A DNA stretch of 64,000 nucleotides, taken from Candidatus Micrarchaeota archaeon. GTDB lineage: Archaea > Micrarchaeota > Micrarchaeia > Anstonellales > Bilamarchaeaceae. Positions within the stretch are counted from its first letter, which is position 1. Each line of letters opens with the position of its first letter. Positions 1 through 53,381 of this stretch are shown piece after piece. The notes under the pieces are model-generated. The model saw nothing but the letters and a program-made list of their open reading frames with translations, did no database searches and had not been told where the DNA came from. The stretch lies in the NCBI GenBank assembly GCA_964588555.1, contig CAZPPT010000004.1:73698-137697 (forward strand), read 5' to 3'. Position numbers and translations under genes: made by a program.

Positions 1-1143
1 GGCAGCCTCACTGCGCTTGGCGCGATCCCGCCTGATACCTGTGCACTTAAGACGTTTACCCTTTTTGTGCCGAACACAACGCTTGGCGGAAATTATACGG
101 GAATCATCACCGGTACTGCGGTCAATATCCCAAGCGCTTCAGATAGTGTTGGGCTTACTATTCAGGTGATCGGGTCAGTAAATGATTCGGCAGGCCCGGT
201 TGCGGGCAACATCTCAAAGATACCAAAGCGCGTTTTTCTTGAGGAGCCGATTTGGATTACTGCCACATGCAGCGACCTTGGACGTGGCGATAACAACATA
301 CAAAATGCCATCCTTCAGGTCAACAACGCGAGTACCTACAACATGAATCCCATTGACGGTGCATTCGACCAGCCCCTTGAAAACGTCAGCTATCAGATAA
401 GTACGGTTATTCCCTTTGGTAAGCACAATGTTACGATGTGGTGCATCGACAACCAGAACAATACGGGGCCAGCCGCAAATTATTCATTTGTCGTCATGAA
501 GGAGACGCTTTTTGTAACGCGGCTTAGTAACCTTGGGACTTCCGAGGCAAACTGGCACAACTGGTGGCCCAATTATATTTCGTTTGAGGGCTTTAAGGGT
601 ACAAAAACCAATGTCCAGCGTTCAGATTTTCTAAATAATGCGGTAAATAACCCAAATTATAATGAAAGCTACTATGGTATCGTGCTTATTGCCGACGATG
701 GGATTACGAGCGGTTCCCAGGGGTCTGCACTTATAACTCGATTAAATACGTATATGGCAAACGGCGGCGTTGTCGTCTTCCTCGATGAGGCGCTTGACGA
801 CCCGCTTGACGATTTCGGGTTTGCCAACGGCGGAAACGACGACAGCCTCACCACCATTGCAACCACGAACAACACGCACTACCTTACCACCGGTTATTCT
901 GCGCCATCCAGCATTATCATTTATAGTGGCAGCGCGCATGATGTCAATTATGCGACAAGCTACTCCGGCTCGACCCTTATGACCACCACGCTTGCCCAGA
1001 CTACGCGGGCGGTTCTTGGCGTAGGATCAAGCCATGTCATATGGGGCCCCTCTGAACCGGGGTCATTTAATGGCAACGGGCACAATGTCTCGATACGGGT
1101 CATTGATTACGCACTCCTTACAAGTACGATGGGTGAAAGCTGA
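1..1143 (+). CDS. Pilin-like/adhesin-like surface protein, 5' end outside the window. It is rich in N-x-S/T sequons, and its C-terminal part is paralogous to the C-terminal half of the next gene.
   Basis: The frame stays open from base 1. Residues 1-60 align with an internal segment of the 1143..3137 product (..PDTC.LK.F.....NYTG.IT......PSA.DSV.L.I.V..). Shared motifs include NNTGPAANYSFVVMKE against NNVGPEANYTFTVMKE. Confidence 0.6.
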   Translation, partial: GSLTALGAIPPDTCALKTFTLFVPNTTLGGNYTGIITGTAVNIPSASDSVGLTIQVIGSVNDSAGPVAGNISKIPKRVFLEEPIWITATCSDLGRGDNNIQNAILQVNNASTYNMNPIDGAFDQPLENVSYQISTVIPFGKHNVTMWCIDNQNNTGPAANYSFVVMKETLFVTRLSNLGTSEANWHNWWPNYISFEGFKGTKTNVQRSDFLNNAVNNPNYNESYYGIVLIADDGITSGSQGSALITRLNTYMANGGVVVFLDEALDDPLDDFGFANGGNDDSLTTIATTNNTHYLTTGYSAPSSIIIYSGSAHDVNYATSYSGSTLMTTTLAQTTRAVLGVGSSHVIWGPSEPGSFNGNGHNVSIRVIDYALLTSTMGES

Positions 1144-3137
1144 TGAAAGCGCAAATAAGCACTGAATTTCTTTTGATACTCGGGGTTCTTTTTATCCTCC
1201 TTACCGTATTCATTATTACGTCCCAGGAGGAGCTCACTGACGTTACCACGTCACATATTGAACAGAAGGGGCAGACAAGTGCCGATGCACTGAGTGCTGC
1301 GGCAAAGGAAGTTTATTCCCAGGGCTTTGGCTCGCGAAAGCGCGTATATGTCGATATCCCTTCAGCATATGATCCGACACGTTCAGGTACTCTTAACCGT
1401 ACGCTTATCCTCCATGTACTTGGCTCCGACATGGTGCGCACCTTTGATTTTGACATTGTCGGCCAGCTGCCCAATTCGCCCGGCCCGCAATGGGTCTGGG
1501 TGACAAACGAAGGGTCACACGTCCGTATAGGCCTTTCGCTCCTTTCCCTTGACCGGCAGTCCGTGTATGTAATTATGGGCCAGAATACGACTGCAAACGA
1601 CACGCTCTTTATACAAAATGTCCACACGGGGCAGGTAAACGTGACCATCACGCCGTCGTGGACAAGTGCACATGTGAACATTTCACTTTCAAGCACGCAG
1701 GTAAGCCTTTCTTCAAACCAGACGTTTCCGCTTCTTATTAATTTTCCCTCCCTTGCAAGCGCAATTGGGACGTATAGTGGCAGCCTGGCCCTCACCGCCT
1801 CAAGCGGAAACGCCACTGAGGTAATCTACGTGCCTGTTATTGTTGAAGTGACTGCCACACTAAGCACCGTGCCACCCCTTTGGATCATCCCGAACGTGTG
1901 GAACAGCTCACTTCTTCCTTCCCAAAACGTATCCAAATCATTCATTGTCTGTACAAACTCGGCAACATCGGTCACAGACGTTTCCTTTAACGCGTCAGGC
2001 ACCGCCGGTGCATGGGTCACTGGCCTTGAGGCACTTCCTGCGATGGGGCCTGACACCTGCCTTACGAAAATATTTAACATGTCAATCGCAAATGCGACAA
2101 ATGCAGGAAACTACACCGGCTTTATCACCGCGCAGGGCGGAGGCGTGCCAAGCGCGACCGATTCGGTCGCACTTTTCATAGAGGTCGGCTCAAACCCAAG
2201 CGACATTGTCGGTCCGCTTGCAACGAATTTTGGCAGGTCCCCCTCACGCGTGTTTTTCGGTTCTGCGCTTACGGTTAGTGCGGTATGTGACGATACTAAT
2301 CGGGGGAACAATACGATAAGCCGTGGTGAGATAAGGGTCGGTAATACCGGTTCCTGGTCAACCCTTACGGCAGTTGACGGCTCCTATGATTCCATTATGG
2401 AGAATGTAAGCCACACATTTACCCCTACACAGCCCGGCTTTCAGAACGTGACATTCCGGTGCACTGATTCGCTTAATAATGTCGGTCCGGAGGCAAACTA
2501 TACATTTACGGTCATGAAAGAAATCGTTCTTATTACTAAGGACCAAGGATCTGCGCAGGGTGAACAAAACTGGGACGAATGGCTTACGATCCACAGTTCC
2601 GCGCTTGGCTACTCGTGGAGCTTTGACCGGGTTCACCGTAAGGACATTACGGACGGTGTTGTTGACATAAATGGGTATGCGGTTGCCCTCCTTGCGGAGG
2701 CCGTAACATCAGGAAGCACTGGCAATTCGCTTGTCACGCTCCTTAATACCTATCGAACTAATGGAGGGTATGTGGTCATTGTCGACAAGGCGGTACGCGA
2801 CACAAGTGCTGATTTTGGTATCGGCTCAAACCCGCAGCAGGTCACCCAAAATGTTGTCACCATTTCGGGTAATTCCCACTATATTACAAGCTCTTTTTCC
2901 AACAATGCGTCACCACGCATCTATCATTCTTCAAGCGCCATTTATTATTTTGATACGGGGACAAGTTCGCTTGTCCGGCCGTCGGTTTCTTCACCAATAG
3001 ACCATGCCGTGCTTATCGATACAAACCGGATCATCGCATGGGGGGTGACGCGTCCGTACCGCCTTAATATCAACGGCACAACAATCAGTGCAGGGGTTTT
3101 TGACTATGCGATCAATACAAGCACGATCGGGTCGTGA
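1143..3137 (+). CDS. Large type IV pilin-like surface protein with an archaeal class III signal peptide (MKAQISTEFLLILGVLFIL). It has many N-glycosylation sequons.
   Basis: The N-terminus K-A-Q-I-S-T-E-F followed by a hydrophobic stretch matches the archaeal prepilin (PibD/FlaK substrate) pattern. The start codon overlaps the previous stop (ATGA). The C-terminal 350 aa duplicates the upstream gene. Confidence 0.65.
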   Translation: MKAQISTEFLLILGVLFILLTVFIITSQEELTDVTTSHIEQKGQTSADALSAAAKEVYSQGFGSRKRVYVDIPSAYDPTRSGTLNRTLILHVLGSDMVRTFDFDIVGQLPNSPGPQWVWVTNEGSHVRIGLSLLSLDRQSVYVIMGQNTTANDTLFIQNVHTGQVNVTITPSWTSAHVNISLSSTQVSLSSNQTFPLLINFPSLASAIGTYSGSLALTASSGNATEVIYVPVIVEVTATLSTVPPLWIIPNVWNSSLLPSQNVSKSFIVCTNSATSVTDVSFNASGTAGAWVTGLEALPAMGPDTCLTKIFNMSIANATNAGNYTGFITAQGGGVPSATDSVALFIEVGSNPSDIVGPLATNFGRSPSRVFFGSALTVSAVCDDTNRGNNTISRGEIRVGNTGSWSTLTAVDGSYDSIMENVSHTFTPTQPGFQNVTFRCTDSLNNVGPEANYTFTVMKEIVLITKDQGSAQGEQNWDEWLTIHSSALGYSWSFDRVHRKDITDGVVDINGYAVALLAEAVTSGSTGNSLVTLLNTYRTNGGYVVIVDKAVRDTSADFGIGSNPQQVTQNVVTISGNSHYITSSFSNNASPRIYHSSSAIYYFDTGTSSLVRPSVSSPIDHAVLIDTNRIIAWGVTRPYRLNINGTTISAGVFDYAINTSTIGS

Positions 3138-3141
3138 TTCA

Positions 3142-3519
3142 ATGCGCGCACAAATATCCGAGGAATTCATGATCGCGCTTTCGGCAGCGCTTTCGCTCCT
3201 TATGCTTGGCGTATTTATTTACCAAGGGCAGCTTGTCAATTTTTACAGCGTGAGGGATTCAGTAAGCGCAAGCGAAGTTTCGTATCAGGTCGCTTCGGCA
3301 CTTAACCATGTCTATCTTGCAGGGGACGGCACGACATACTCCATGGCGCTTGTTGCGCGCGGCATGAATATCACCGTGCGCGGGCAGGTCGTCACTGTCG
3401 AGTCATTGAATGGCAGTGCATTTGCACAGGACCGTGTCCTTGCAAACGACACGCTTACGTTTAACAATACTGGCATAGTAACAATTGTAAACAATGGTGG
3501 GGCACTTGCAGTCAGATAA
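3142..3519 (+). CDS. Small pilin-like protein with a class III signal peptide (MRAQISEEFMIALSAALSLLML)
   Basis: The ATG at 3142 lies 5 nt after the stop of the previous gene. The R-A-Q-I-S-E-E-F plus hydrophobic helix motif is present. Confidence 0.6.
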   Translation: MRAQISEEFMIALSAALSLLMLGVFIYQGQLVNFYSVRDSVSASEVSYQVASALNHVYLAGDGTTYSMALVARGMNITVRGQVVTVESLNGSAFAQDRVLANDTLTFNNTGIVTIVNNGGALAVR

Positions 3520-4066
3520 ACACATCTTTGGCCGGTCAAACTTGTTACCTTTTTCCCGACGGTCGCTCCGGGGCCAAATATGGAGCACTGATTTTATCAT
3601 CATGTCGATTTTGTTTATTGCAATTGTCTTTACGTTTCTTTATTTCTGGAGCTTCATGAATGTGCGCTGGCAGAATGTGGCTTCCTACAACCGGCAGTAT
3701 ATGCTTGGCCTTTCAATAACTGATGCACTTACCTCAACGCCTGGAAACCCCCCGAACTGGGAGCATTTGGGCGTTATTAATGAAAGTACGCTTGTGCATT
3801 TTGGGCTTGCCCAAGGCCGCAGCCATATTGCGTATGACAAGATCGAGCGGCTGTACAACCTTTCGCATTCAAACTATTCGCTTTTTAGGGAACGGCTTGG
3901 CGTTTATCAGTACGAGCTATACCTTAACGTAAGCAACCTTGACCGTACCAAGACGTGGTATGAGCTTGGCAACCGTTCAAGCCAGGTAAACGAGACAGTC
4001 GTGTTTGACCGCCTCGTCGTGTTCAACGATACGCCGGCCATCTTGAGGTTGGAACTATGGCACTAA
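3494..4066 (+). CDS. Pilin-like protein with a class III signal peptide (..LRGQIWSTDFIIMSILFIAIVF). The true start is probably the TTG at 3542.
   Basis: The R-G-Q-I-W-S-T-D-F motif is followed by a hydrophobic helix. The in-frame ATG at 3494 overlaps the upstream gene and would give a 29 aa leader. A TTG at 3542 would give a more typical 11 aa leader. Confidence 0.5.
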   Translation: MVGHLQSDKHIFGRSNLLPFSRRSLRGQIWSTDFIIMSILFIAIVFTFLYFWSFMNVRWQNVASYNRQYMLGLSITDALTSTPGNPPNWEHLGVINESTLVHFGLAQGRSHIAYDKIERLYNLSHSNYSLFRERLGVYQYELYLNVSNLDRTKTWYELGNRSSQVNETVVFDRLVVFNDTPAILRLELWH

Positions 4067-4461
4067 AAGGCTTTTATCTGACCCTTGACGGGCTTTTTGC
4101 CCTTACTATCCTAGTAGTGGTACTTATCCTTATATCAAACCAGCTTTTTCAGCCAGTAACGCCGCGTGGCATGTACCTAAAACAGGTTTCATACGACCTC
4201 CTTGAAGTCATGGACAAGACCGACCGTGCTGAGCACGCGCTTTTCCTTGGGAACACTACTGCAGTCCGGGAGCTTTTGGAATCATTCCCCATACAGGTAT
4301 GTGCCCAGGTGCATTTTGAGAACACTGTTTCAGGTTCCATCATTACGATCACGCGTCCGACGTGCGGGGGCTTTGGGACACAGCTTCAGGCAACATATCG
4401 TCCCATGTCCATCCGCGGGATCCGTTATATGGTAAAAGTCGAAAGCTGGTACAACTCGTGA
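4057..4461 (+). CDS. Small pilin-like protein (MALKGFYLTLDGLFALTILVVVLILI)
   Basis: A K-G-F..L.LDG motif is followed by a hydrophobic helix. It overlaps the previous gene by 10 nt, consistent with an operon. Confidence 0.5.
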   Translation: MALKGFYLTLDGLFALTILVVVLILISNQLFQPVTPRGMYLKQVSYDLLEVMDKTDRAEHALFLGNTTAVRELLESFPIQVCAQVHFENTVSGSIITITRPTCGGFGTQLQATYRPMSIRGIRYMVKVESWYNS

Positions 4462-4466
4462 GTACT

Positions 4467-5315
4467 ATGAAAAAAATGCGCGCATTTGTATTGACACTTA
4501 TCACGGTGAGCCTCATGTCACTTTTGGTGCTCACGTGGATCTCCTTCCAAGAAAGCGCAGTACGTTTTGAGGGAAATAGCCTTCGGCCACAGTCACTTGC
4601 GTTTTCCCGCATTGTATTTGAGGCCGTATTTGATGAGCTTCATCGTATTGCCGGTCCCGATTTTTCAACAAGCCCCACCAACACTACCGTCATGGTTTTC
4701 TTTAACGATACCCTCCCAAAACCAAATATCACTGCTGAACTAGACCTCCTTGATAATTTTATCGAGGCAAACTATTCGCGGCGTATTCATGCCAATTTGT
4801 CGCTTGACCTTACCAACCTTACAGATAACAGTGTTGATTTTATCCTGTCTGGCCACTACGTGCACCGGACAAATTCGTCTACCGGGGCATCGACAGTTGA
4901 ATTTTATTCGCTTAATGGGGCACAATCAGGCGTGACGCGATATGACATTAATGTCACTACACTTTTGGTACGCCAGTCAGTTACGTCATTTTCCTGGGAT
5001 CCGACTGGCGACATCAACGTATCGCTTACGTATTCCGACAGCAACGGTTCGGTTACGCTTACTGGCCTTTTGCGTAATGGGACTACGAATACGTTTTCCA
5101 TCCTCTATGCAAATAACCAGACAACAAATGTTACAATTGGCGCACTAGGCACAAAACGAGGGGCGCTTCTTATCGGCGATACCGCAGGAACCGCATATTC
5201 GCTTGCAGTTCACCTGCCGTTCAACATGTCGCAGCACCTTACGTATGGGTACGAAGCCTCGCTTAATTATACGCAAGGGGTCATTTCGAAGTACGGAAGG
5301 GTGGAACGCGATTAA
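4467..5315 (+). CDS. Secreted/membrane-anchored protein with an N-terminal hydrophobic helix (MKKMRAFVLTLITVSLMSLLVL) and many N-x-S/T sequons. It is probably a pilus-associated protein.
   Basis: The ATG at 4467 lies 6 nt after the stop of the previous gene. The product has an N-terminal signal/anchor helix and repeated N-glycosylation sequons. Confidence 0.5.
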   Translation: MKKMRAFVLTLITVSLMSLLVLTWISFQESAVRFEGNSLRPQSLAFSRIVFEAVFDELHRIAGPDFSTSPTNTTVMVFFNDTLPKPNITAELDLLDNFIEANYSRRIHANLSLDLTNLTDNSVDFILSGHYVHRTNSSTGASTVEFYSLNGAQSGVTRYDINVTTLLVRQSVTSFSWDPTGDINVSLTYSDSNGSVTLTGLLRNGTTNTFSILYANNQTTNVTIGALGTKRGALLIGDTAGTAYSLAVHLPFNMSQHLTYGYEASLNYTQGVISKYGRVERD

Positions 5316-5458
5316 TGCCGGTTAGCATCCTGGGTCAAGGGGAGCACTAAATCAGGAAGACTTTGGCGTTTGTCTCAGTGTTTAAACTTGCGTAGGTTAC
5401 CTCAGATTTTCTTATGAAATTACTGCGGAAATTGGTAGCGGCGCAAGGTTTAAATATT

Positions 5459-5494
5459 TATCCTATTATAGGATTATCCTATAATAGGATAATT
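5459..5494. promoter_or_regulatory. Two tandem copies of a 15 bp palindrome (ATCCTATTATAGGAT / ATCCTATAATAGGAT) ending 7 bp before the ATPase start codon. It is probably an operator overlapping the TATA/BRE region.
   Basis: Read directly from the sequence. Each unit is a perfect 7-1-7 palindrome, and the two units are mutual reverse complements. Confidence 0.5.
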
Positions 5495-5500
5495 GATGAT

Positions 5501-6838
5501 ATGAAGTTTTATGACCGAGAAAAAGAGCTTGAAGTATTGCAAAAAGCCGTAGCTCATCCCGGCTCCGCAATGATTGTCATAAGTGGGAGGCGGCGAGTTG
5601 GCAAAAGTAGGCTCGTTGACGAGTTTCTAAAAAGAAACAAAGGCTTGAAAACACTCATTGTACCGAAGGAAGAGAAACAGGTTGCAGCCGACTTCGCAGA
5701 ACTCCTTAAAGATCAGTTTAAACCGACATTCAATACCATAAAGGAAGCACTCGAGTACTTTTTTACTAAGTCTAGTGAACGATTACTATACATTGACGAA
5801 TTCCCAAATTTTCTAGAGGTCAACCAATCAATACCATATGAGCTTCAGCGTCTTTGGGAGATGTACAAGGACAAGACTAATAAGGTACTCATTCTTTCCG
5901 GCTCTTACGTACGTATGATAGATAAAATATTCACAAGGCAGAAAGCACCTCTTTTCAACAGAGCATCTTTCAAAATTATTCTGGAACCACTGCCCCTTAC
6001 GGTAATCTGGCAAATGCTCAATGATATCGGCACCTCTAACTCAGAACAAAAAATAGCAGATTATTGTGTTTTTGGCGGCATTCCTTATTATTATGAGGTA
6101 CTGGAGAAACACGATAGCGCGCCTTCTATTGAAGGACTGTTTTTTGGTGTTGGCCAGTTGAGAGAAGAAGGCCAGGACATACTGCGCCAGGAATTTGGAG
6201 CCACGTACAAGAAGTATTTTTCAATACTTGAGGCAATCGGAGCAGGTTTAGTTTCGGCGGGTGAAATCGCAAATAAGATGGGAATCGCGCAGACTACGCT
6301 ATCTAAGTATATCCAATCTCTACAGAACGACTTCAAACTCATTGAGAGAAAAGTGCCGTTTGACCAAAACCCATCCAGAAGCAAGAAAGGGGTATATGTG
6401 ATAAAGGACAACCTACTTGCTTTTTGGTTTAGCCAAGTTTATGGTAAAACGCAATTACCGAGCAAAATTGCCCTCACTCAATTCGTCAGCCGGCGTTTTG
6501 AACCCCTTTGTGCTAACTTTTTCATTGATTGGCTTGATAAAAAAGGCGAACAGATTGTAAGGTCTGGCCAATGGTGGGGCAACGTTGAAATAGAGAAAGG
6601 TAAGTTCGAGCAACGCGAGATTGATTTGATTATAGAAACTGACAAGACGCTTTACATTGGGGAATGCAAATGGAGTGACAATAAAATAGGCGAAAAAGAG
6701 CTAGAGCACTTGAAACAATCCGCAAAGGCACTGAAAACAAAGAAACAGGTGAAATGGGTGTTGTTCAACAAAAAAGGATTCTCCATAAATGAAAGCAAGG
6801 ACGTTTTATTGTTTGATGCTGAAAGGATTGTACGCTGA
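5501..6838 (+). CDS. Archaeal AAA+ ATPase (Arch_ATPase family with a C-terminal DUF234 domain)
   Basis: Walker A motif GRRRVGKS. Walker B-like motif LLYIDEFPNF. The C-terminal motif LIIETDKTLYIGECKW is typical of DUF234. Confidence 0.7.
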   Translation: MKFYDREKELEVLQKAVAHPGSAMIVISGRRRVGKSRLVDEFLKRNKGLKTLIVPKEEKQVAADFAELLKDQFKPTFNTIKEALEYFFTKSSERLLYIDEFPNFLEVNQSIPYELQRLWEMYKDKTNKVLILSGSYVRMIDKIFTRQKAPLFNRASFKIILEPLPLTVIWQMLNDIGTSNSEQKIADYCVFGGIPYYYEVLEKHDSAPSIEGLFFGVGQLREEGQDILRQEFGATYKKYFSILEAIGAGLVSAGEIANKMGIAQTTLSKYIQSLQNDFKLIERKVPFDQNPSRSKKGVYVIKDNLLAFWFSQVYGKTQLPSKIALTQFVSRRFEPLCANFFIDWLDKKGEQIVRSGQWWGNVEIEKGKFEQREIDLIIETDKTLYIGECKWSDNKIGEKELEHLKQSAKALKTKKQVKWVLFNKKGFSINESKDVLLFDAERIVR

Positions 6839-10664: not shown

Positions 10665-11837
10665 ATGGCTGACGCTGACATACATAAATTAATATCGCTT
10701 ACTTTTGACGAGAACCCTAAAATCAGGCTCGATGCAGCGGCCAAATTGTCAAAGATCGACGACCCTGCCGCGCTTTTTGCACTCATGGAACTTAGTTACG
10801 ACAAGGACCTTGAAGTAAAGAATTTTGCACAAAACGCCCTTGAAAAGAAAAAATCCGAAGAAGAGGAAGTCATGAGCTTTGCAGAAATTTTTTCCACCAA
10901 GAAGGAAGAGGCCGCATCAGTTTCCCCCGATGCAGTTGTACCTGGCGACAAGAAGGAAAAGATGCTCTCCCCGATTACGAAGTTGTTTGAGAAAAAGCTT
11001 GGCAAGCAGCGTGCCGATCGGGTGCGGCAGCGCATGATGCCTGCGATTGAAAAAGTATACATGAAGTCGACCTCCCAGGACAAGGCAGGCGAGAATGAGC
11101 CGGGACGAAAGGCAATACAGGAATTTTTGACTAGTTACCTTGATGCAATTTCTGACCTCGAGTCCATTGCAACGCCTGATGGCCATGTTATCCCCGATTC
11201 CGACCAGCCTGAAGCGGTTCACCACGAGGGAGGCGAAGTGCCTTCTGTTGCACAACTTGCAGTAACTGAAATTGAGGAAGTGTCACGTGACCATGACGTT
11301 TCGGGAATTACGCAGGAAGTTTACGAGCTTGAGGAGCGGGAACGAAAAGAGGCGCATGAAGAAGAGACGTTTACGAAGTTGCCGGATACCCCGTTTAAAA
11401 AGGCGTATGAGGCCATGCTTGCAAGCAACGGCGATGAAGATGTCATGAAAAAAGAGCTTAGGCGCATGCAGAAAAATTTCGACCACGACCTTAAGCTTGC
11501 GTATTCGCTTGCGCGCCGGAAGTTTAGGGAAGTCAATATCACGCACGTTTCGAAGATAAAGGACGGCATGCGGAACGTCAATACGGATTTACTTTCCGTT
11601 ACCGGCGTTGAAACAATCGCATACGAAAAGGGCAAGCAAAAACTTACCGCGACCCGGGTCATGGTCCAGGATGCAAAGGAACGCGAGGCGGTCGTATACC
11701 TGTTTGATGGCCGCGGCTCGTGGATTAAGGAAGGCATGAAGATCAAGGTCATCAAGGGACAGGCAAAGTCGTTTAAGTTCTCAGGGGAAACCGCGCTTAC
11801 GGTCGGCTCGAAAGGAAATGTGTATATTGTTCTTTGA
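10665..11837 (+). CDS. HEAT-repeat (PBS-lyase-like) protein with an acidic linker and a conserved C-terminal domain
   Basis: N-terminal NPKIRLDAAAKLSKIDDPAALFALMELSYDKDLEVKNFAQNAL matches HEAT_PBS repeats. The ATG at 10665 is preferred over the upstream in-frame ATG at 10584. Confidence 0.5.
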   Translation: MADADIHKLISLTFDENPKIRLDAAAKLSKIDDPAALFALMELSYDKDLEVKNFAQNALEKKKSEEEEVMSFAEIFSTKKEEAASVSPDAVVPGDKKEKMLSPITKLFEKKLGKQRADRVRQRMMPAIEKVYMKSTSQDKAGENEPGRKAIQEFLTSYLDAISDLESIATPDGHVIPDSDQPEAVHHEGGEVPSVAQLAVTEIEEVSRDHDVSGITQEVYELEERERKEAHEEETFTKLPDTPFKKAYEAMLASNGDEDVMKKELRRMQKNFDHDLKLAYSLARRKFREVNITHVSKIKDGMRNVNTDLLSVTGVETIAYEKGKQKLTATRVMVQDAKEREAVVYLFDGRGSWIKEGMKIKVIKGQAKSFKFSGETALTVGSKGNVYIVL

Positions 11838-11840
11838 TTT

Positions 11841-11946
11841 GAAAAACTGGATTCATACCCCGTTGCTTGCAACGAAACCCAGTTTTTCAAAGTTGTGACC
11901 GAATGGGGCATACCCCTCCAGCTTGCTGCGGGATCCCTTCGGTCAC
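11841..11946 (+). other. Structured intergenic element with nested perfect hairpins, followed by T-tracts. Either tandem terminators or a small structured RNA.
   Basis: Perfect inverted repeats in the sequence: GAAAAACTGG/CCAGTTTTTC, CGTTGC-TT-GCAACG, GTGACCGAA/TTCGGTCAC and GGGG-CATA-CCCC. Confidence 0.35.
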
Positions 11947-11981
11947 ATTGATTTTTTAATTATTTTAATTACTAATTTTTT

Positions 11982-12839
11982 ATGGCAGCCAAATTGTCTC
12001 TTGCCCGTACTCGAAAGCCACAAACTGGGGGTGCACGGAACGATCTTTTCGTGAGATATAAGTCCGATCCTACTTCTGCGCTTGGTGGTCAGATTGAACA
12101 GCTTGAACGCGCCCGGATGCTGTCTGCTGCAAAGTTTGTCATGAATAGATATCCTCACATAAAGGGAAGCGTTTCGCTGGGGCAGCTTGTGAATGCCGGT
12201 TTTAAGGGTTTATTGGAAGGGCTTAGGCGATTTGACCCGTCAAGGGGTGCAGCGTTTGACACCTTTATATTTCACCGCGTACGTGGTGCAATGGTTGATG
12301 AGCTTCGGGAACTTGGCCTTCTTGCAAAAACTGAAACGCGAGGAAGGGGCACCATACATATTCCGATAGATGCACTGTCAAATTCACTTTATAGCCCAGT
12401 TCCCCGTGCAGACGACTTGATCATACGGCAAGAGGCGCTTTTGCGCATCAGACAAGCCCTGGAGCATCTTAAAGAAGACGAACGGACGTTTATCGAGCTT
12501 TATTATTTCGAAGGGCTTACTATGGAACAGGCAGGCGACCGCTTAGGTGTAAGTAAATCCTGGTGTTCCCAGCTGCATCAAAGGGCGCTCAGCCGTTTGC
12601 GCTGCCTTCTGAGGGAAACGGGATTGCCTTCGCACCGTCAACCGACTTCGCGCGTAGTGCATGATGCGGGGACAATCCTGGGCCACAAGGACATTGCAGC
12701 CCGCTATGGCATCCCGAAGGGCAGCATGAATGGCGTTATTGAAAAGTATGGCCTTCAAAAGGTCAGTCGTGGCCAATACATGGTTACTGCCGAAATCGAT
12801 GCGGCACTTACGGCAAGATACGGCAGGTACGATCCTTAA
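11982..12839 (+). CDS. Sigma-70 family RNA polymerase sigma factor, FliA/sigma-28-like. It has regions 2 and 4 plus an 80 aa C-terminal extension.
   Basis: Region 2 (LGQLVNAGFKGLLEGLRRFDPSRGAAFDTFIFHRVRGAMVDELRE) resembles FliA (..AGGIGLLNAVERYD...FTTYAVQRIRGAMLDELR). Region 4 (ELYYFEGLTMEQAGDRLGVSKSWCSQLHQRALSRLR) also resembles FliA (..[34 protein letters not shown]). Confidence 0.65.
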   Translation: MAAKLSLARTRKPQTGGARNDLFVRYKSDPTSALGGQIEQLERARMLSAAKFVMNRYPHIKGSVSLGQLVNAGFKGLLEGLRRFDPSRGAAFDTFIFHRVRGAMVDELRELGLLAKTETRGRGTIHIPIDALSNSLYSPVPRADDLIIRQEALLRIRQALEHLKEDERTFIELYYFEGLTMEQAGDRLGVSKSWCSQLHQRALSRLRCLLRETGLPSHRQPTSRVVHDAGTILGHKDIAARYGIPKGSMNGVIEKYGLQKVSRGQYMVTAEIDAALTARYGRYDP

Positions 12840-12898
12840 GACCGATGTATTTTTATTCCCTTCTTGTACAACATATGTATATCTTTTTCGGTGGGGAT

Positions 12899-13588
12899 AT
12901 GAGTTCTTCGTTAGATGTAGGCACTAGTGGGAAAACCATTGAAATAATCCCTGCCGTTTTGGTCAAATCCCGTGCTGACCTTATTAATGCAATTGAGCTC
13001 GTAAAGCCGTATGTAAAAACCGTGCAGATCGATATTATGGACGGCGTATTTGTTCCAAACAAGACGATTGGCACTGATGAACTTGTGGACCTTCCAACTG
13101 GTGTCAGGTATGAATTCCATTGGATGGTCGAAGAGCCTGAAAACTGGATTGAACGCCTCGGACCCGAACGCATGGGCGACCTCCATCTTGTGCACGTTGA
13201 ATCATTTATGGATTTTAACAAGGTAAAGCAGGCGGTGGAAAAGCGCAACGCACACCTCGGAATCGCGTTCAATCCAGCCACCCCTCTTGAGAAACTCAAT
13301 GACTATGGGGACAAAATTAATTATGTTCTTGCAATGACCGTTGTGCCTGGTTTTTCAGGCCAGAAATATATTTCAAGTGTCGAGGCAAAGATTATTGAAT
13401 TACGCAAACGGCACCCCGGGTATGATATTGAAGTCGACGGTGGCATTACGGTTGAAACAGTTCCTGGCGCAGTTCAGGCAGGTGCAAACAAGATCGTTGC
13501 CGCAAGCGCAATTTACGGTACAAACGATGTCGCACGTGCGATCCAAGAACTCACGCGTGCTGCACAAAAGGGTAATGTCCATGGTTAA
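12899..13588 (+). CDS. rpe: Ribulose-phosphate 3-epimerase
   Basis: VQIDIMDGVFVPN... AMTVVPGFSGQKYI... IEVDGGI motifs. An alternative start lies at 12845. Confidence 0.75.
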   Translation: MSSSLDVGTSGKTIEIIPAVLVKSRADLINAIELVKPYVKTVQIDIMDGVFVPNKTIGTDELVDLPTGVRYEFHWMVEEPENWIERLGPERMGDLHLVHVESFMDFNKVKQAVEKRNAHLGIAFNPATPLEKLNDYGDKINYVLAMTVVPGFSGQKYISSVEAKIIELRKRHPGYDIEVDGGITVETVPGAVQAGANKIVAASAIYGTNDVARAIQELTRAAQKGNVHG

Positions 13589-14441
13589 CCGGGTAAGGAT
13601 TACGAGTATTAAGAAACTTCGCCTTGTTGCAAACGGCATCCGCCAGGATGTCATAAAAATGCTTCTTGAGGCAAAATCAGGCCACAGCGCCGGCAGCATC
13701 GGCCTTGCGGACATATTTACTGCATTGTACTTCAATGTCCTCTATCACGATCCAAAAAACCCTCAGTGGAAGGATCGTGATCGCCTTGTCTTGTCAAATG
13801 CGCATGTGTGCCCTGTCATGTATGCTGCAATGGCCGAGGCGGGTTATTTTGACAAAGCAGAACTTCTGACGCTCCGAAAGCTTGGTTCCCGCTTGCAGGG
13901 GCATCCGCATCCCGGAACCCTGCCTGGCGTCGAAACGGCAGGCGGCCCGCTTGGGCAGGGACTCAGCCAGGCGGTCGGTATGGCGCTTGTTGCGCGTGCA
14001 GAGCGAAAGCGATGGCGCGTCTATTGCGTCATGAGCGACGGCGAGCACAACGAGGGACAGACGTGGGAGGCAATCATGCTTGCGGCAAAATATAAGCTTG
14101 GCAACCTTACTGCGATTATTGACCGCAATAACATTCAGATGGACGGCATGACCGAGGAAATCTTGCCGCTTGAGCCGTTTGCGGAGAAGTATCGTGCCTT
14201 TGGCTGGCGCGTCATTGAGGTCGACGGCCACAATGTCGGCAAATTTATTGAGGCATGCGAAGAGAGTAAGGCGATTTACGAGCGGCCGACCGTCATCATT
14301 GCGCACACGATTCCTGGCAAGGGGATCCCATACATGGAATATTTAAGCGAATGGCACGGAAAGCCCCCAAGCAAGGAACAGGCTGATGAGGCACTTGCGC
14401 TTTTGGATGCCGAAAAGAAACTGATTGAGGAGAGCGAATAA
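13581..14441 (+). CDS. Transketolase, N-terminal (thiamine-diphosphate-binding) subunit
   Basis: GHSAGSIGLADIFTALYF... GPLGQGLSQAVGMA... DGEHNEGQTWEA. The ATG overlaps the rpe stop (ATGGTTAA). Split transketolase is typical of archaea. Confidence 0.8.
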   Translation: MVNRVRITSIKKLRLVANGIRQDVIKMLLEAKSGHSAGSIGLADIFTALYFNVLYHDPKNPQWKDRDRLVLSNAHVCPVMYAAMAEAGYFDKAELLTLRKLGSRLQGHPHPGTLPGVETAGGPLGQGLSQAVGMALVARAERKRWRVYCVMSDGEHNEGQTWEAIMLAAKYKLGNLTAIIDRNNIQMDGMTEEILPLEPFAEKYRAFGWRVIEVDGHNVGKFIEACEESKAIYERPTVIIAHTIPGKGIPYMEYLSEWHGKPPSKEQADEALALLDAEKKLIEESE

Positions 14442-14442
14442 T

Positions 14443-15435
14443 ATGGCACTCTGCATTAAGGAAATGGCACTTGTTGAGGATCCGCTTTCTCCAAAGTCAA
14501 GCGTTTCAACGCGCGACGGCTTTGGGAAGGGCCTCGCAGAAGCAGGTGAGGAGAACCAAAATCTTTGGGTACTTACTGCTGATGTAACTGAAAGTACGCG
14601 CGTGAATTGGTTTTCGGAAAAGTTTCCCAAGCGGTTTATCCAGATCGGGATTGCCGAGCAGAACATGGCGGGCGTTGCGGCGGGCGTTGCGGCATGCGGA
14701 AAGACTGCGGTCATGTCTTCGTTTTCCGCATTTTCGCCTGGCAGGAACTGGGACCAGATCCGTGTTTCCATCTGCTATTCTGACACTGACGTAAAGATCT
14801 GTTCAACTCATGCCGGCTTGACGGTCGGGCCTGACGGCGCGACGCACCAGGCATTGGAGGATGTGGCCATGCTTCGTGCGCTTCCAAACATGACTATTGT
14901 CGTTCCTTGCGATGCCGAACAGGCACGCCGTGCAACAAAAGCCGTTATCGGCGTACGCGGTCCTACGTATATGCGCTTTTCGCGTGAAAAGGCGGCTGTC
15001 TTTACTACTGACAAGACTCCGTTTGAAATTGGCAAGGCAAACGTGTACCGTGAGGGAAAGGATGTCGCAATAATTGCGTGCGGCTTTGAAGTCTATGAGA
15101 GCCTGAAGGCTGCCGAATCGCTTTCTAAGGAGGGCATTGACTGCACGGTTATTGACTGCCATACTATTAAGCCGATCGATCAAAATACGATTGTTGAATC
15201 CGCGCGCAAAACCCGCCTTATTGTGACTGTCGAAGAGCACCAGATTAACGGCGGACTTGGAAGCGCGGTTGCTGAAGTGCTTTCTGAAAATAATACTGGC
15301 GCGCGCCTCGTCCGCCATGGCATCATGGATACATTTTGTGAAAGTGGGGATGCAAAGGATCTTTTGAAGAAATATAAATTGGATGCAACGGGCATTGCAG
15401 AGGTTGTAAGGGAAGCGGTGAAAAAATCAACGTAA
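14443..15435 (+). CDS. Transketolase, C-terminal subunit
   Basis: FIQIGIAEQNMAGVAAG... and a C-terminal transketolase-type domain. The ATG lies 1 nt after the stop of the N-terminal subunit gene. Confidence 0.8.
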   Translation: MALCIKEMALVEDPLSPKSSVSTRDGFGKGLAEAGEENQNLWVLTADVTESTRVNWFSEKFPKRFIQIGIAEQNMAGVAAGVAACGKTAVMSSFSAFSPGRNWDQIRVSICYSDTDVKICSTHAGLTVGPDGATHQALEDVAMLRALPNMTIVVPCDAEQARRATKAVIGVRGPTYMRFSREKAAVFTTDKTPFEIGKANVYREGKDVAIIACGFEVYESLKAAESLSKEGIDCTVIDCHTIKPIDQNTIVESARKTRLIVTVEEHQINGGLGSAVAEVLSENNTGARLVRHGIMDTFCESGDAKDLLKKYKLDATGIAEVVREAVKKST

Positions 15436-29234: not shown

Positions 29235-30197
29235 GTAAAAAATAGCGAAAAATTAATCTATATTTTCTCACTCGCCAAAAGATTTTAATTCTCAAGCTGC
29301 TTTCGCAGTTTGCTCTTTCGAGCAAAGGAAATGAAAACGAAGATAAATGTTAACTATAACAAATATGCCATGGATGAAAAATTAGCTGAGCTTATTGGTA
29401 TTCTTTTAGGAGATGGATGTATCAGTACCTATCATTGTAAATCAGGTAACAAAGGACAAACCCAATACCGAATAAAAATAACCCTTAATGCAATTAAAGA
29501 TTTAGAATACTCAAATTATGTGAGTACTCTACTTGAACACATATTTAAGCAAAAACCAAAAATTTATTTTAGAAAGGATGAGAATACCTTAGATATATAC
29601 CTACTGGGAAAGCAACATGTAGATTTTCTACTTAATCTTGGTATGACCTTATCTCCTAAATGGGCTAGGGCTCAGATACCAAAAGAATTTATTTTGCCCC
29701 CACTAGATAAATTTGTAGTTCGGGGATACGCTGATACAGATGGATGTATCTGTAATGTAAATAATAACGGTATTCGTTATCCCCGAATTGAAATGAAAAT
29801 TTGTCCTTCTCCAATGCAATCTCAGTTTATTCAAATTCTTAAGAATAATGGATTTGAACCTCAAATAAACAAACTTGAAAGAGGTAAAATACGAATTGCG
29901 CTTTCTGGGATGAAGAAATTAAAGAAATGGTTAGACTTAATCGGCTTTTCTAATAAGAGAAATATAACTATGGCAGAATATTTTATAAAAGAAATAGCGG
30001 GAGGTAGATTTGAACTACCGACCTTTACCCATGCTTTAGATAAATAATCTTCTAAATGCATTTCGGGTTATGAGCTTCGTCCCAAACCTTTAGTAAACTT
30101 ATAATAAATACCTAAAAGTTCGGTCCGACGGGAACTCCAGGCTCCCCCATCCCGCTTTTAATAAGGATTATATTTATATTGCCAATCCTTTATAAAG
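29235..30197 (+). mobile_element. Low-GC insertion carrying the free-standing LAGLIDADG endonuclease gene. It is flanked by hairpin-forming noncoding DNA.
   Basis: Sharp compositional drop. Hairpins AGCTGC-TTTC-GCAGTT and TTTGCTC-TTTC-GAGCAAA sit immediately upstream of the ORF. Confidence 0.5.
29310..30047 (+). CDS. Double-motif LAGLIDADG homing endonuclease
   Basis: Motif 1 LIGILLGDGCI and motif 2 VRGYADTDGCI are separated by about 100 aa. GC is around 30-35%, well below the flanking DNA. Confidence 0.8.
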   Translation: MLFRAKEMKTKINVNYNKYAMDEKLAELIGILLGDGCISTYHCKSGNKGQTQYRIKITLNAIKDLEYSNYVSTLLEHIFKQKPKIYFRKDENTLDIYLLGKQHVDFLLNLGMTLSPKWARAQIPKEFILPPLDKFVVRGYADTDGCICNVNNNGIRYPRIEMKICPSPMQSQFIQILKNNGFEPQINKLERGKIRIALSGMKKLKKWLDLIGFSNKRNITMAEYFIKEIAGGRFELPTFTHALDK

Positions 30198-30743
30198 TTG
30201 TTGATATGTATGGCTGGCAAAATGAAAGGCAGTGAAGGAACTGGCGCTAAAATTATCAGCTTAGGCGAAAGACGGGAAACTCCATTTCGTGCACGAAGCC
30301 CCTCCCCTGAAATTTCGAGAATTTCGGCAATGCAGGTAATTTCTGAAATTCAAGGCATTTTAGCTGAGTGGGCTGAAGATGTTCAGCAAGCACTCAGGAT
30401 TCCCAGAGACGGCCTATTTAAGCGTAGGGATCAGGATGGCGCCACATTGTATTCTTCTGACGACCAATTCACCATTACATCAGTCATTAACTTATTTAGT
30501 GGGGCATTGGAAGTGCCTTCAAAACTTCCGGACTATGGATTTGCCATTTATGAAACACCTGGCAGCACATACTTTGTTCTTTTTGATTCAGAGCGAAACA
30601 TCTGTATTCGCCAAAAAATCATGCGTACCTTAGTCAATCCGGCAAATGCAACCTGGGCCGACGTTGCCCGTACAATTACTTATGCGGAAAAGCAAGCGAG
30701 CACAAGCGGACAAACGGCTCTTGTCGACAAAGAATCGTTTTAA
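30198..30743 (+). CDS. Hypothetical protein (181 aa)
   Basis: ORF converging tail-to-tail with the giant gene, with a 4 nt overlap. Confidence 0.4.
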   Translation: MLICMAGKMKGSEGTGAKIISLGERRETPFRARSPSPEISRISAMQVISEIQGILAEWAEDVQQALRIPRDGLFKRRDQDGATLYSSDDQFTITSVINLFSGALEVPSKLPDYGFAIYETPGSTYFVLFDSERNICIRQKIMRTLVNPANATWADVARTITYAEKQASTSGQTALVDKESF

Positions 30744-33700
30744 GTTGGCGCAGGCGGCGGCACGGTTGGTTTTTCAAGGCTCTGCAGCACCTGTTTTGCA
30801 TCCCTTCTAAATACGAGAACCGCCTGGTTTAAGACTCCGTTTTTTGCAAACTGGTCCATCGTATCACTGCCGTACGTATCGTTTAAGTGCTTATCAAATG
30901 CACGCACATTTCGCGCTTCTTCTCCAGAAAGTTTTGCAATTTCCGTCTCGTTCCCCCTCACCTGCATATACAGGAGCCGTAAGTTTTCCGCCCTCTCGCT
31001 TACGAGAACCTCATCATGGAGCCGGCCCATCGTCCCGGCGAAATCATCGGCACCGTTTTGCCTTAGGAATTGGTCAAATACCGGGATCACCCCAACTTTT
31101 ATTTTTTCCCCATCTTTGGCCGTGATTGTTTTTTCTGCAACCAATGTACTCCTTCCTTCAGTGTCAGTCATTACATAGCGGTCCATCCCATTGGAGGGCC
31201 GCGGTTCGGAGGGGGTCTCGTCTCTTGCAAGTTGGTCAAGCTGGGCCTGCGTAAGCCTTCTTCCGACCCCGTATTGTTTTCCATCATTATCCTTAAAATG
31301 CCTTGTCATGCTTCTTCTATACGCAGGCGTACTCCCGACACCCCGATACCAGCGTGCCGCACCTCGCATGAGCGGACCATCGTTGTGTTCGCCAAATGCC
31401 CTGCCTGCGATATCTGCAATCGAATGAGTACTGCCGTATTCACTGTTTGTTTGCCTTGTAAGTTCTACAAAAAATCGCAGCATATCTTCTCCGCCAACCC
31501 GTTCTATGAGCATCGAATCATCGAGCGTACCGTCGCCATTTACCTTTATATGGAAATCGGCAAAGCTGTCATTGTCAATATTCCCAAATTTGAGCACGAC
31601 CGTTTTTGTTCCCTCGCCACTTGGCACTTCAAGAACCTTGTAACCGTTACTTTTGAGCCACGCAACATCTGCCCTGCCAGTTACTTCAAGTGCCATGATG
31701 ACAAGGTTTGCATTCCGTCGATCCCATGCCCCGCTGCTTATTGAGCCGGCATATGCATACCCGAGCTCTTCAAATAATGTATCCTGGTTGTTCATGACAA
31801 TGTCCCGAAGCGCCTTATTGCCTTCAGTTTTAAGGTCATTAAGCTCTGATGCAAGCATTGTTTTTACTTTGATCGCCCTCCCCTTTGTTCCTGTTTTTGA
31901 TTCAAAGGAAACCTTTCCTTGGAAATCATTGATACTTTTGGAAACGCCATACGTTACTTTTTGGCCGGTGAGCGGGTCAACAAACGCAAGCGGCCTGCCC
32001 CCAATGCGGGTTATGGTTTCAGGCGCCGGCATATTTGAAATAAGTGAGGCCTTTGCACCGGTCGCTTCCGGCGTGAGGTTCTGTTCTTTTATATAAACGG
32101 TTTCGCGTTTCCCATCCTTTCTCTGTAGCGTGACGCTAAATGCGCCCCTGTCAGTAGCATAACCTTGTTCTGCACTGCCAATTTGATTTGTATGGTTTAC
32201 CCCGATAATCTTGGTTCCTGCACCTGCCGTCGGACTGAGTGCGTCAAGCAGCTGTCCGGTTGTAAGTATTGCAAGGAGTCTCGCACGGCGTTGGTTGCCG
32301 ATGATGTTCGGCCCAAGCCCCTCCCCGAACCGTACGCCCATATTTTCCAGTTGGTCAAAAACAACAAATCGCGCTTCTTCCTCACGGATGAACGAAATGA
32401 GCTGTGCGTCTGTTGGTCCCTTTTCACCAAACCTCCCGTATAATGCCGCCCCTATTGATTTTTCTTCATTGCTGAGCGCATCCCACCGCTTGAGTCCGCG
32501 GTTTATCTCCATTTGCTGTTCTTCAGTAAGGGTTCCCCATACTGTGTTATTTCTTTTTTTCTCAAGAAGCGGCTTTGCCGTTGCATATGCCTCCATTAAC
32601 CCGCTTAAGTCATTGAGTTCCGATGTTGATACTTCCCTCGTGGCGGATGCAGTGTATTCCCTTGTAAGAAATCCCCTTTTAGTTCCTAATGTTCCTTCAA
32701 GTGCCCTTAATCCCTCAAGCTCGTTTTGAACCACAGGGGGCGTACGTGCCCTTCTTCTTAACAATCGCCCTATTGTTTGTCTGGTTTCCCTTGCGGTTGC
32801 GGCTATCCGCTCTTTTATTTCACGTAGTCTTTGCCTGAATGTCCTTTGCGCCGGTTTTGCCGTGGTTTCTGGAAGCACTGGCTGTTCTACGCGTTTTTTA
32901 GTCGGCGGCGCAAATTCAGGTACAGTGCCTGTCCGCGGGGCTTGCGTTCCATGCATTCTAGATTGTCTAACGGGGACGTTCTTTTCAGGCATCGTGGTTC
33001 TTCGTTCTTTTGGTTTTTGCGCAATGCGAGCGGTTTCTTCCCTTACGCGTACAACCGCTGTTTTTTCTACTGGTGCTTGCCTTGGCAGTTTTCCTCCCGT
33101 AATTGTCACCTCGCCCGCACTTTCGTATTCTTCAATTGCCATTGCAAGCATTGCGCGCCTAAACTCGTCTATCTGGCGTACATGGTCCCTTCTCCTTCTT
33201 TTTAGGTTGGCAACCTCTTCTTTTTGTTTCCCATTCTTGCGCTTTATACCTGAGAGTATTTTTAGTCGTCCATCTATCAGCCCTATTTGCCGTGCATTTT
33301 CAGCTACTGCGCCTGCTGCCACCTTAAAGAGCGGCTTATTCGCGAGGTTTTCAACCGTACCCGCTTTCTCAGGCGAGACATCGTCAATACTTTTTTTATC
33401 TCGTACAATTTGTTCTGCTTCACTTATTCGTGCGATTACCTCTTCTGCATCAGCCCGTGAAAGCGTATGTGTGGCATCACGCCCGGTCAGTATGAACCGT
33501 TCTTTTCCTTCTTCGTCTACCGACCTACTGGTAAATGCGTTTTCCCATTGGAGGCGTTCACTGTCTACGTTTGGCTCTTGGCGGGGCATTCGCCCAACGT
33601 GGGTCATTTCCCTTTCCCGTGCCGTTTCCTCTCCTATTGGAGGTTGCACCCTACTTCGTATTTGTTCAGTCCGTTCATAGCGAAGCTCCCCTTCTTCTGT

Positions 33701-43019: not shown

Positions 43020-43199
43020 TTAATTTTCCTCTTCCCGTAATACGCCAAGCGGGAGTACTCCTTTCTCATACTCGAGTGCGGCAATTTCTATGAAGTTCTT
43101 TGGCTGTTTTTCCAGTTTTACGACAGGTGGTGCGCCAAGTGAAAGCTGGAGTGCGCGTGCGCCAATGAGCCGGGCTAGTTCGTATTTAGTCAGTTCCAT
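43020..43199 (-). CDS. rpoK: DNA-directed RNA polymerase subunit K (Rpb6/RpoK-like), 59 aa: MELTKYELARLIGARALQLSLGAPPVVKLEKQPKNFIEIAALEYEKGVLPLGVLREEEN
   Basis: This ORF is not in the supplied ORF track because it is shorter than 60 aa. The KYE.ARLIGARALQ.S.GAP...A..E...G.LP motif is diagnostic of archaeal RpoK / eukaryotic Rpb6. Confidence 0.7.
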   Translation of the reverse strand: MELTKYELARLIGARALQLSLGAPPVVKLEKQPKNFIEIAALEYEKGVLPLGVLREEEN

Positions 43200-43246
43200 A
43201 AGTAGTCACCATATTCTACTAATTAGTAATCAGAAGTGTTTAAAAA

Positions 43247-53170: not shown

Positions 53171-53381
53171 GGTCTTCCCTCACTGTGGCGATAAAGTCCT
53201 TTTTACTAATTTTTTTGATGATGGGTGCCATCTGAGCAAGTGCCTTTTTGGTTTCGTTTAATCGTTCCTGCTGCGCGGCCTCAATGATACTTGTTCGCAC
53301 TATTTCACTTACGTTTATTTTGTGTTTTTTAAGTAGTTCCAATTCTTCTTCAGGTACTCGAGCAGATATTACAATATCCAT
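53157..53381 (-). CDS. vapB: VapB-type antitoxin (74 aa)
   Basis: Small protein overlapping the vapC start, as is typical of archaeal VapBC pairs. Confidence 0.55.
   Translation of the reverse strand: MDIVISARVPEEELELLKKHKINVSEIVRTSIIEAAQQERLNETKKALAQMAPIIKKISKKDFIATVREDRESH

Follow-up and report, generated by a model that had tools for sequence, protein, structure and literature searches.

A FliA/WhiG-related sigma-70-family gene with a predicted winged-helix extension on a Micrarchaeia contig

Background

Sigma factors on one side and TBP/TFB on the other mark the textbook divide between bacterial transcription initiation and that of archaea and eukaryotes; archaeal RNA polymerase (RNAP) initiates with TBP/TFB. 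Sigma-70 genes (fam00359) have been described in the genomes of DPANN archaea, where they are prevalent in Woesearchaeota, in a study that excluded mis-binning, saw no anti-sigma factors and came to no clear function for them (Castelle et al. 2021; PMC8204110). In 2025, rpoS-like genes were also reported from viruses of DPANN archaea and from a prophage (PMC12647753), and stand-alone proteins with a sigma4/LuxR-type helix-turn-helix are catalogued as putative archaeal transcription regulators (PMC5413776). What a sigma factor does without its polymerase is the question that the DPANN genes pose. The gene analyzed here is a member of the sigma-70 family at positions 11982-12839 of a 64,000-nucleotide stretch of Candidatus Micrarchaeota DNA (GenBank assembly GCA_964588555.1, contig CAZPPT010000004.1, positions 73,698 to 137,697, forward strand; this whole stretch is called the window below).

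It is an intact bacterial-type sigma-70-family gene, nearest to FliA/WhiG but not a canonical FliA, and there is very little doubt about either this identity or its horizontal origin in Micrarchaeia. No literature report was found of a sigma gene in Micrarchaeota specifically or of a sigma factor fused to a MerR/Xis-like winged helix. Sigma factors in DPANN as such are already published, and the Micrarchaeia host, the loss of region 3 and the winged-helix fusion are variant detail; the surprise is therefore smaller than was assumed in the original prediction, which had been made from the sequence alone. That prediction holds in outline, and the gene proves more intricate than it described.

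Domain structure and family of the sigma protein

The gene and its parts are as follows.

11982..12839, + strand: sigma-70-family gene, complete open reading frame (ORF) with ATG start, 285 amino acids, arranged as sigma1.2/2, short disordered linker, sigma4, linker and winged helix
12030..12317, + strand: sigma region 1.2/2, residues 17-112, four helices with conserved GLLEGLRRFDPSRGAAFDTFIFHRVRGAMVDELR (Pfam region 2 match, WhiG/FliA alignments, AlphaFold2)
12318..12419, + strand: first linker, in place of region 3, residues 113-146, predicted disordered, predicted local distance difference test score (pLDDT) <50
12420..12617, + strand: sigma region 4, residues 147-212, helix-turn-helix with recognition-helix motif LGVSKSWCSQLH (Pfam region 4 match, pLDDT ~90)
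12618..12671, + strand: second linker, residues 213-230 (18 residues), low model confidence
12672..12821, + strand: C-terminal domain, residues 231-280, strand-helix-helix-strand-strand-helix, predicted MerR/excisionase-like winged helix-turn-helix

Membership was judged with the Pfam models PF04542 (sigma2), PF04545 and PF08281 (sigma4) and PF04539 (region 3) at their gathering scores. Sigma70_r4 matches residues 159-207 (E 1.9e-16; 59.8 bits against a cutoff of 24.1), Sigma70_r4_2 (PF08281) scores 42.6 bits against 25.7, and Sigma70_r2 (PF04542) matches residues 65-110 (E 5.8e-10; 39.3 bits against 24). The AlphaFold2 model has a helical sigma2 (pLDDT ~80-87) and sigma4 (pLDDT ~90), and the top Foldseek matches of the whole model in the PDB are exclusively sigma factors, with E down to 4e-8. 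Sigma2 score, sigma4 score and fold thus all place the protein in the sigma-70 superfamily, as the original prediction had claimed; it had named a lack of Sigma70 profile matches as the outcome that would speak against the claim, and the matches are significant.

The closer label given there, "FliA-type", is only partly right. FliA_WhiG ranks first among the NCBIfam models (E 5e-29), followed by FliA and the sigma-70 superfamily model TIGR02937, and the best matches among solved structures are Streptomyces WhiG (6pfv; E 4.5e-20), Pseudomonas aeruginosa FliA (9wsm) and Escherichia coli FliA (6pmi_F; E 2.8e-17). However, TIGR02937 is the sole model of the three whose curated cutoff the protein passes (86.7 against 42.9); it reaches 101.6 bits against a cutoff of 189.6 for FliA/WhiG (TIGR02479) and 92 against 201 for FliA (NF005413), and it has no region 3. 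The Sigma70_ECF score (20.3 bits) lies under the cutoff of 21.1, and the ECF-type models of NCBIfam are outscored by those for FliA/WhiG. The alignment to 6pmi_F contains the pairs cited earlier as evidence that regions 2.1-2.4 and 4.2 align to E. coli FliA, namely rvrgamvdelr opposite RIRGAMLDELRS and swcsqlhqralsrlr opposite a 15-letter partner. The N-terminal alignment proposed at the same time also holds, with bacterial homologs aligning from residue ~19. The N-terminal 58 residues gave no match in the top-150 sigma matches and none in Pfam, and the N-terminal 60 gave chance-level matches only against a six-frame translation of the window.

Pfam returned no Sigma70_r3 (PF04539) match, and the alignments show where the segment is missing: query residues 117-136 stand opposite WhiG residues 124-203 (~19 vs ~80 residues), and query residues 121-153 opposite E. 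coli FliA residues 96-179. When the 155 best relatives are aligned with MAFFT, the spacing between regions 2 and 4 has a median of 87 amino acids, whereas it is 46 in the query; the short, two-domain form is shared by 36 of the 155. The protein therefore does not have the three-domain architecture of FliA/WhiG. No FlgM, RsiG or flagellar match was found by Pfam and NCBIfam scans among the window ORFs examined. The sigma-28 promoter consensus occurs at chance frequency in the window (9 matches vs 8.4 expected), which says little because the recognition helices of the protein differ from those of FliA.

A predicted winged helix at the C-terminus

About 73 amino acids extend past region 4. The original prediction had described an extra tail of 80 amino acids, which is nearly right for its length, but the segment is no loose extension; it is predicted to be a winged-helix domain. 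Its pLDDT is >90 in the full-length AlphaFold2 model and 86 when it is folded alone from the single sequence. The best Foldseek matches in the PDB are the DNA-binding domains of RacA, CbpM, CarH, NmlR and BldC (probability <=0.93, E >= 0.08), which are modest one by one but cluster in the MerR/excisionase-type winged helix-turn-helix fold class. The predicted structure has the order strand, helix-turn-helix, wing and helix of that fold, and the domain is accordingly predicted to be a MerR/excisionase-like winged helix.

Sequence searches with this part of the protein gave little. The domain has no homolog in a 5.8-billion-protein database and no counterpart in the top-150 sigma matches; no MerR or HTH_17 family appears at E <= 10 in Pfam or E <= 0.1 in PHROGs, and the tail alone finds one insignificant match in each (E 0.054 and E 0.036, respectively). 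Its comparison with the six-frame translation of the window yielded chance-level matches only. That the tail might be a separate gene fused through a sequencing error was considered and rejected, as both available assemblies agree base for base and the linker has no start codon before the domain.

Archaeal residence of the gene

Two features of the window bear directly on the nature of the host.

55370-58671, + strand: archaeal 23S rRNA, complete, matching the whole 2,987-position model
43023-43205: RpoK/Rpb6, an archaeal RNAP subunit

The archaeal 23S match spans 3,302 nucleotides (nt), ~315 nt more than the model, so insertions or expansion segments are likely; 16S rRNA, 5S rRNA and tRNA genes were not found in the 64 kb. 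Archaeal markers that score above their cutoffs are Dph2 (TIGR03682), the phosphoglucosamine mutase GlmM (TIGR03990) and uS10 of the eukaryotic/archaeal type (TIGR01046), and an archaeal DUF35/thiolase pair and an archaetidylinositol-phosphate-synthase-like protein are also encoded. No bacterial RNAP genes were seen within the window. Thus the archaeal context that had been proposed from 23S, RpoK, Dph2 and the DUF35-thiolase genes stands, except that eL41, which had been listed with them, was not found by a motif scan. The best named relatives of uS10 (73-78% identity) belong to Candidatus Bilamarchaeum, Bilamarchaeaceae and Micrarchaeota/Micrarchaeia, within the DPANN class Micrarchaeia, order Anstonellales; the closest relatives (81-93% identity) lie on contigs of 0.6-6 kb.

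The exact sigma protein is present on one 144-kb NCBI contig and on one Logan contig of run SRR5011273. The latter is 26,018 bp long, starts at window position 11926, shows 0 mismatches over the 10.9 kb compared, and joins the sigma gene with archaeal GlmM and archaeal-type uS10. Since it carries all three, the deposited assembly is not the only support for linkage of the sigma gene to archaeal markers, although the two assemblies probably use the same reads and the replicate is then not fully independent. The upstream gene lies on another Logan contig, which ends at 11880, and the sigma contig starts 56 nt before the ATG; this unbridged upstream junction leaves the linkage to the downstream archaeal genes unaffected. 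Like the DPANN sigmas of Castelle et al. (2021), the gene resides on a contig with archaeal markers (here uS10 and GlmM on the same Logan contig). The composition of the gene is native: the codon-usage log-likelihood has a z of -0.26, GC content at third codon positions (GC3) a z of 0.06, and the tetranucleotide distance to the window mean lies at the 10th percentile. A bacterial sigma embedded in archaeal DNA and linked to archaeal markers in Logan agrees with the horizontal acquisition suggested earlier; a chimeric contig had been named as the finding that would overturn it, and the second assembly has the sigma gene on one contig with the archaeal markers.

Promoter and upstream intergenic region

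Between the upstream gene and the sigma ATG lie the following elements.

11838-11891 and 11894-11947, + strand: two stable hairpins with outer stems of 13 bp and 10 bp, respectively (fold z -3.9), between the upstream gene and the promoter
11953..11965, + strand: TATA-like element TTTTTTAATTATT; its 8-mers begin at -29/-28 relative to the ATG

The sigma ATG is preceded by 32 nt that are nearly all A/T (TTTTTTAATTATTTTAATTACTAATTTTTT) and contain no Shine-Dalgarno motif. TATA-like 8-mers starting between -33 and -25 precede 9 of 43 window genes, at a background of 0.0009 per position, and these genes include sigma (-29/-28), Dph2 (-28) and an Lrp/AsnC regulator (-31 to -29). Archaeal TATA boxes of leaderless mRNAs should give such a pattern, and the element before the sigma gene is probably the archaeal promoter of a leaderless mRNA. 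There is no bacterial sigma-70-type promoter upstream of the gene on the + strand, nor any bacterial promoter or terminator in the upstream intergenic region; because the TATA-like pattern stands at the canonical distance and no bacterial promoter is present, the gene appears, as far as its DNA can tell, to be wired for archaeal expression. The second assembly breaks within the hairpin pair (contig ends at 11880 and 11926). The hairpins match no credible Rfam family (one match, E 0.34) and have no repeated copy within the window.

Neighboring genes

Upstream of the sigma gene (10665-11837, + strand) lies a gene for a 390-amino-acid protein whose N-terminus is HEAT-like at a sub-threshold score, whose middle is acidic and whose C-terminus, which ends ...GETALTV/ISKKGNVYIVL, is OB-like. 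It had been called a HEAT-repeat protein; it does adjoin the sigma gene, but its HEAT match is below the Pfam cutoff (21.2 vs 27.7 bits). Relatives with 46-52% identity occur on four metagenome contigs, so the protein is lineage-typical. In the two of these four that have enough sequence no sigma gene follows, and a membrane protein and dCTP deaminase are found there on the opposite strand. Downstream (12900-15435, + strand) are the gene for ribulose-phosphate 3-epimerase (rpe) and then a split transketolase whose N- and C-terminal halves are separate genes; these may be co-transcribed with the sigma gene or driven by a TATA-like element of their own at 12872-12882.

Bacterial relatives and probable origin

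A HMMER scan of 1.84 billion cluster representatives gave 17,721 matches at E <= 0.001, the best of which show 37-50% local identity; only the sigma protein itself lies below 1e-30, and the next best match has 109 bits. A sequence S[KRQE]SW in region 4.2 is common to 99 of the 155 best sequences. When one genome per species in GTDB was scanned for SKSW[ATC]S[RQ]LH, on the basis of a 6-sequence alignment, 591 relatives were confirmed. The best 80 of these are almost all Myxococcota (Myxococcales, Polyangiales, Kofleriaceae, Cystobacter, Archangium, Myxococcus, Corallococcus), the remaining few are Acidobacteriota, Planctomycetes and others, and no archaeal genome is among them. SKSWxSxLH, the region 4.2 motif that the archaeal protein carries, is found almost only in Myxococcota among the reference genomes. 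A YscJ/FliF-family gene lies within a few kb in 15 of the 80 best bacterial relatives, so part of the bacterial subgroup sits in secretion- or flagellar-like clusters; a TPR protein adjoins some of them. This suggests that the bacterial SKSW subgroup regulates a secretion- or flagellar-like apparatus. None of the archaeal neighbor genes was found beside the bacterial relatives, and there is therefore no sign of co-transfer.

The archaeal protein has a core identity of ~52% (106 core columns) to many equally near bacterial neighbors. A neighbor-joining tree of the same columns puts it on an isolated branch and resolves no specific sister and no donor clade. Its terminal branch is at the 86th percentile, its root-to-tip length is not unusual, and of the 42 positions that are >=70% conserved in the bacterial sequences it has kept 34 (bacterial members, 35.8 +/- 3.1), figures that lean toward normality because the sequences compared had been picked for their similarity to the query. 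The nearest bacterial homologs are strongly Ala/Arg-rich, high-GC proteins; as the gene itself is host-like, the acquisition should be old enough for complete compositional amelioration.

No archaeal relative of the sigma protein was found in any database search. The same gene had been expected to be worth seeking in related archaeal genomes, and a single-protein close-match search of 185,579 GTDB species genomes found no relative. A word-indexed search of 5.8 billion proteins returned the protein itself and five weak matches only, one of which (33% identity) is an actinobacterial-type WhiG adjoining RsiG. There is no relative among 2.9 million viral contigs, and phage and plasmid records contain distant sigma matches only (~25-30% identity). 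The missing orthologs are weak evidence for uniqueness, since the lineage is as thinly sampled as the short contigs of its closest uS10 relatives (0.6-6 kb) indicate. The gene is best explained by a lineage-specific horizontal acquisition from a bacterium that carried a sigma of the Myxococcota-type subgroup.

Possible role of the sigma protein

The preferred reading is a domesticated horizontal acquisition that now works as a DNA-binding regulator; taken whole, it is given a probability of about 0.55. A bacterial FliA/WhiG-related sigma of the Myxococcota-abundant SKSWxSRLH subgroup would have entered a Micrarchaeia chromosome, where its base composition would have turned fully host-like, and it would have captured an archaeal TATA-type promoter, with a likely leaderless mRNA, and gained a C-terminal MerR/excisionase-like winged helix that is found in no bacterial relative. 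The protein would regulate transcription by sequence-specific DNA binding, using its sigma4 helix-turn-helix together with the added winged helix, and the well-preserved sigma2 would either contact DNA as a third module or contact a protein. A canonical sigma role is unlikely because the host has an archaeal RNAP (RpoK is encoded in the window) that initiates with TBP/TFB. Re-use as a DNA-binding regulator is suggested by the addition of a second DNA-binding-type domain and by the cataloguing of sigma4/LuxR-type helix-turn-helix proteins as putative archaeal regulators, and the fusion itself suggests re-engineering for a new job, not mere carriage. The regulatory mechanism taken by itself is put forward tentatively, at somewhat less than even odds.

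Several points weigh against this reading. The strong conservation of sigma2, the part that docks on RNAP and reads the -10 element, is unexplained if only DNA binding by sigma4 mattered, and it fits better with a recent transfer or a polymerase-related role. There is no sigma ortholog in ~15 billion proteins from which purifying selection could be measured, and the conservation and branch-length tests are biased toward "normal" by a comparison set picked by similarity to the query. In addition, 45 nt (11881-11925) upstream of the gene are unbridged by the second assembly. Those 45 nt, bridged in the deposited contig only, are what a misjoined bacterial fragment, through faulty assembly or binning, has in its favor, and such an artifact is hardly credible: the break, 56 nt before the ATG, is on the upstream side only, the Logan contig runs 26 kb from the sigma gene through archaeal GlmM and uS10, and the gene has an archaeal promoter motif upstream and a composition indistinguishable from that of the window. 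Cargo of a mobile element or provirus is suggested by the sigma-like genes on DPANN viruses and by the resemblance of the tail to the DNA-binding domains of excisionases and small terminases. This origin is nonetheless very improbable, given the absence of a relative from 2.9 million viral contigs, the merely distant phage and plasmid matches, the native composition, and flanks of housekeeping genes (rpe, split transketolase, glmM) in which no integrase, capsid gene or bounding repeat appears. The idea of an effector aimed at the polymerase of a bacterial partner was set aside, as nothing was found in its support.

It is also unlikely, though this has to be taken seriously, that the gene is a functionless passenger, acquired in this lineage and not yet decayed or carried neutrally. 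Its singleton status in 1.84 billion representatives and 185,579 species genomes, the relatives of the upstream gene (46-52% identity) that lack an adjoining sigma gene, and the absence of any anti-sigma factor or target apparatus found nearby would all suit a passenger, but in so poorly sampled a lineage absence elsewhere is weak evidence. Moreover, the 285-codon frame is intact, host-like composition despite very GC-rich nearest relatives implies long residence, an archaeal-type promoter stands at the canonical distance, and a well-folded extra domain is predicted to have been gained, all of which is difficult to square with neutral drift. The preserved sigma2 bears most directly on a third reading, in which it binds the clamp coiled-coil of archaeal Rpo1/A' and the protein is an auxiliary promoter-specificity factor or a competitor of TFE or Spt4/5. 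This coiled-coil is homologous to the bacterial beta-prime clamp helices gripped by sigma2, a structural homology across domains that is established. In its degree of preservation the sigma2 core equals that of working bacterial sigmas (34 of the 42 conserved positions kept), region 2.1-2.4 is canonical when aligned to FliA and WhiG as solved in holoenzyme or anti-sigma complexes, the fully host-like composition suggests long residence without decay, and sigma is functionally analogous to TBP/TFB (PMC7289017). Docking is nevertheless distinctly unlikely, as the literature yielded no experimental precedent, the protein lacks region 3 with its 3.2 finger, and no other archaeon sampled shares the gene. 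Less probable again is full recruitment of the bacterial-type sigma as a working promoter-specificity subunit of archaeal RNAP, with sigma2 on the Rpo1 clamp coiled-coil and sigma4 and the winged helix reading DNA; if true, this would be a hybrid mode of initiation beside TBP/TFB and the first sigma factor acting on a non-bacterial multisubunit polymerase outside plastids.

Other features of the window

Five ORFs at 1143-5315 (+ strand) have N-termini like an archaeal type IV pilin (class III) signal peptide followed by a hydrophobic helix (e.g., MKAQISTEFLLILGVLFILL and MRAQISEEFMIALSAALSLL). The pilin cluster that had been proposed near the sigma gene is plausible on these N-termini, but none of the five has a Pfam match. 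The two large ORFs, 67-1143 and 1143-3137, have in common a repeated C-terminal region rich in Asn/Thr. The gene at 5414-6838 (+ strand) encodes an archaeal ATPase_2 and DUF234 protein; it has a noticeably low GC of 0.41 and the second-lowest codon-usage score of 46 genes, and it may be a separate acquisition. The lowest score belongs to a free-standing LAGLIDADG endonuclease ORF at 29310-30047 (+ strand; GC 0.32, GC3 0.24, much below its neighbors), which is probably what remains of a mobile homing endonuclease. The ORF at 30740-39337 (- strand) is giant, with 2,865 amino acids, and has no Pfam match at E <= 0.001, and strand A/T composition is strongly skewed at 31-41 kb. A 119-amino-acid PIN-domain protein at 52808-53381 (- strand) overlaps an upstream ORF of 74 amino acids, and the two look like a VapBC-type toxin-antitoxin pair.

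Comparison with known systems

FliA/WhiG (sigma-28, group 3) are the named sigma factors most like the archaeal protein, in that regions 1.2-2.4 and 4.1-4.2 align with canonical motifs (E 1e-17 to 1e-20). It differs from them in reaching only about half of the family cutoff score, in its missing region 3 and in having SKSW where their region 4.2 has SESR; it also has no FlgM or RsiG nearby, no flagellar genes and no enrichment of sigma-28 promoters, and its host is an archaeon. The Myxococcota-rich SKSWxSRLH subgroup, many members of which lack region 3 and are 170-220 amino acids long, shares both the region 4.2 motif and, in 36 of 155 relatives, the two-domain architecture, but the members found are all bacterial and none has a C-terminal winged helix. 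ECF41/42-type sigma factors carry C-terminal extensions, and the ECF (group 4) layout of sigma2, linker and sigma4 with an added C-terminal domain resembles that of the present protein. Its sequence affinity, however, is to group 3, and its extension is a predicted winged helix, not a SnoaL- or TPR-type regulatory domain.

The DPANN fam00359 sigmas are alike in being bacterial-type sigmas on contigs with archaeal markers and without an anti-sigma factor; compared by description, they are prevalent in Woesearchaeota, whereas the present protein comes from Micrarchaeia and has undergone loss of region 3 and gain of a domain. The Tfx, Bat and LuxR-type archaeal regulators likewise have a sigma4-type helix-turn-helix in an archaeal cell, but they have no sigma2, and the sigma protein keeps a complete and conserved one. 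Within its scope of one protein from one poorly sampled lineage, the gene is a clean test case, with documented chromosomal residence, a predicted archaeal promoter, a preserved sigma2 and a newly fused DNA-binding-type domain. If the protein binds archaeal RNAP, it would demonstrate cross-domain compatibility of the clamp/sigma2 interface, and if it is a plain DNA-binding regulator like those just named, it would illustrate the re-use of initiation factors in the role of transcription factors.

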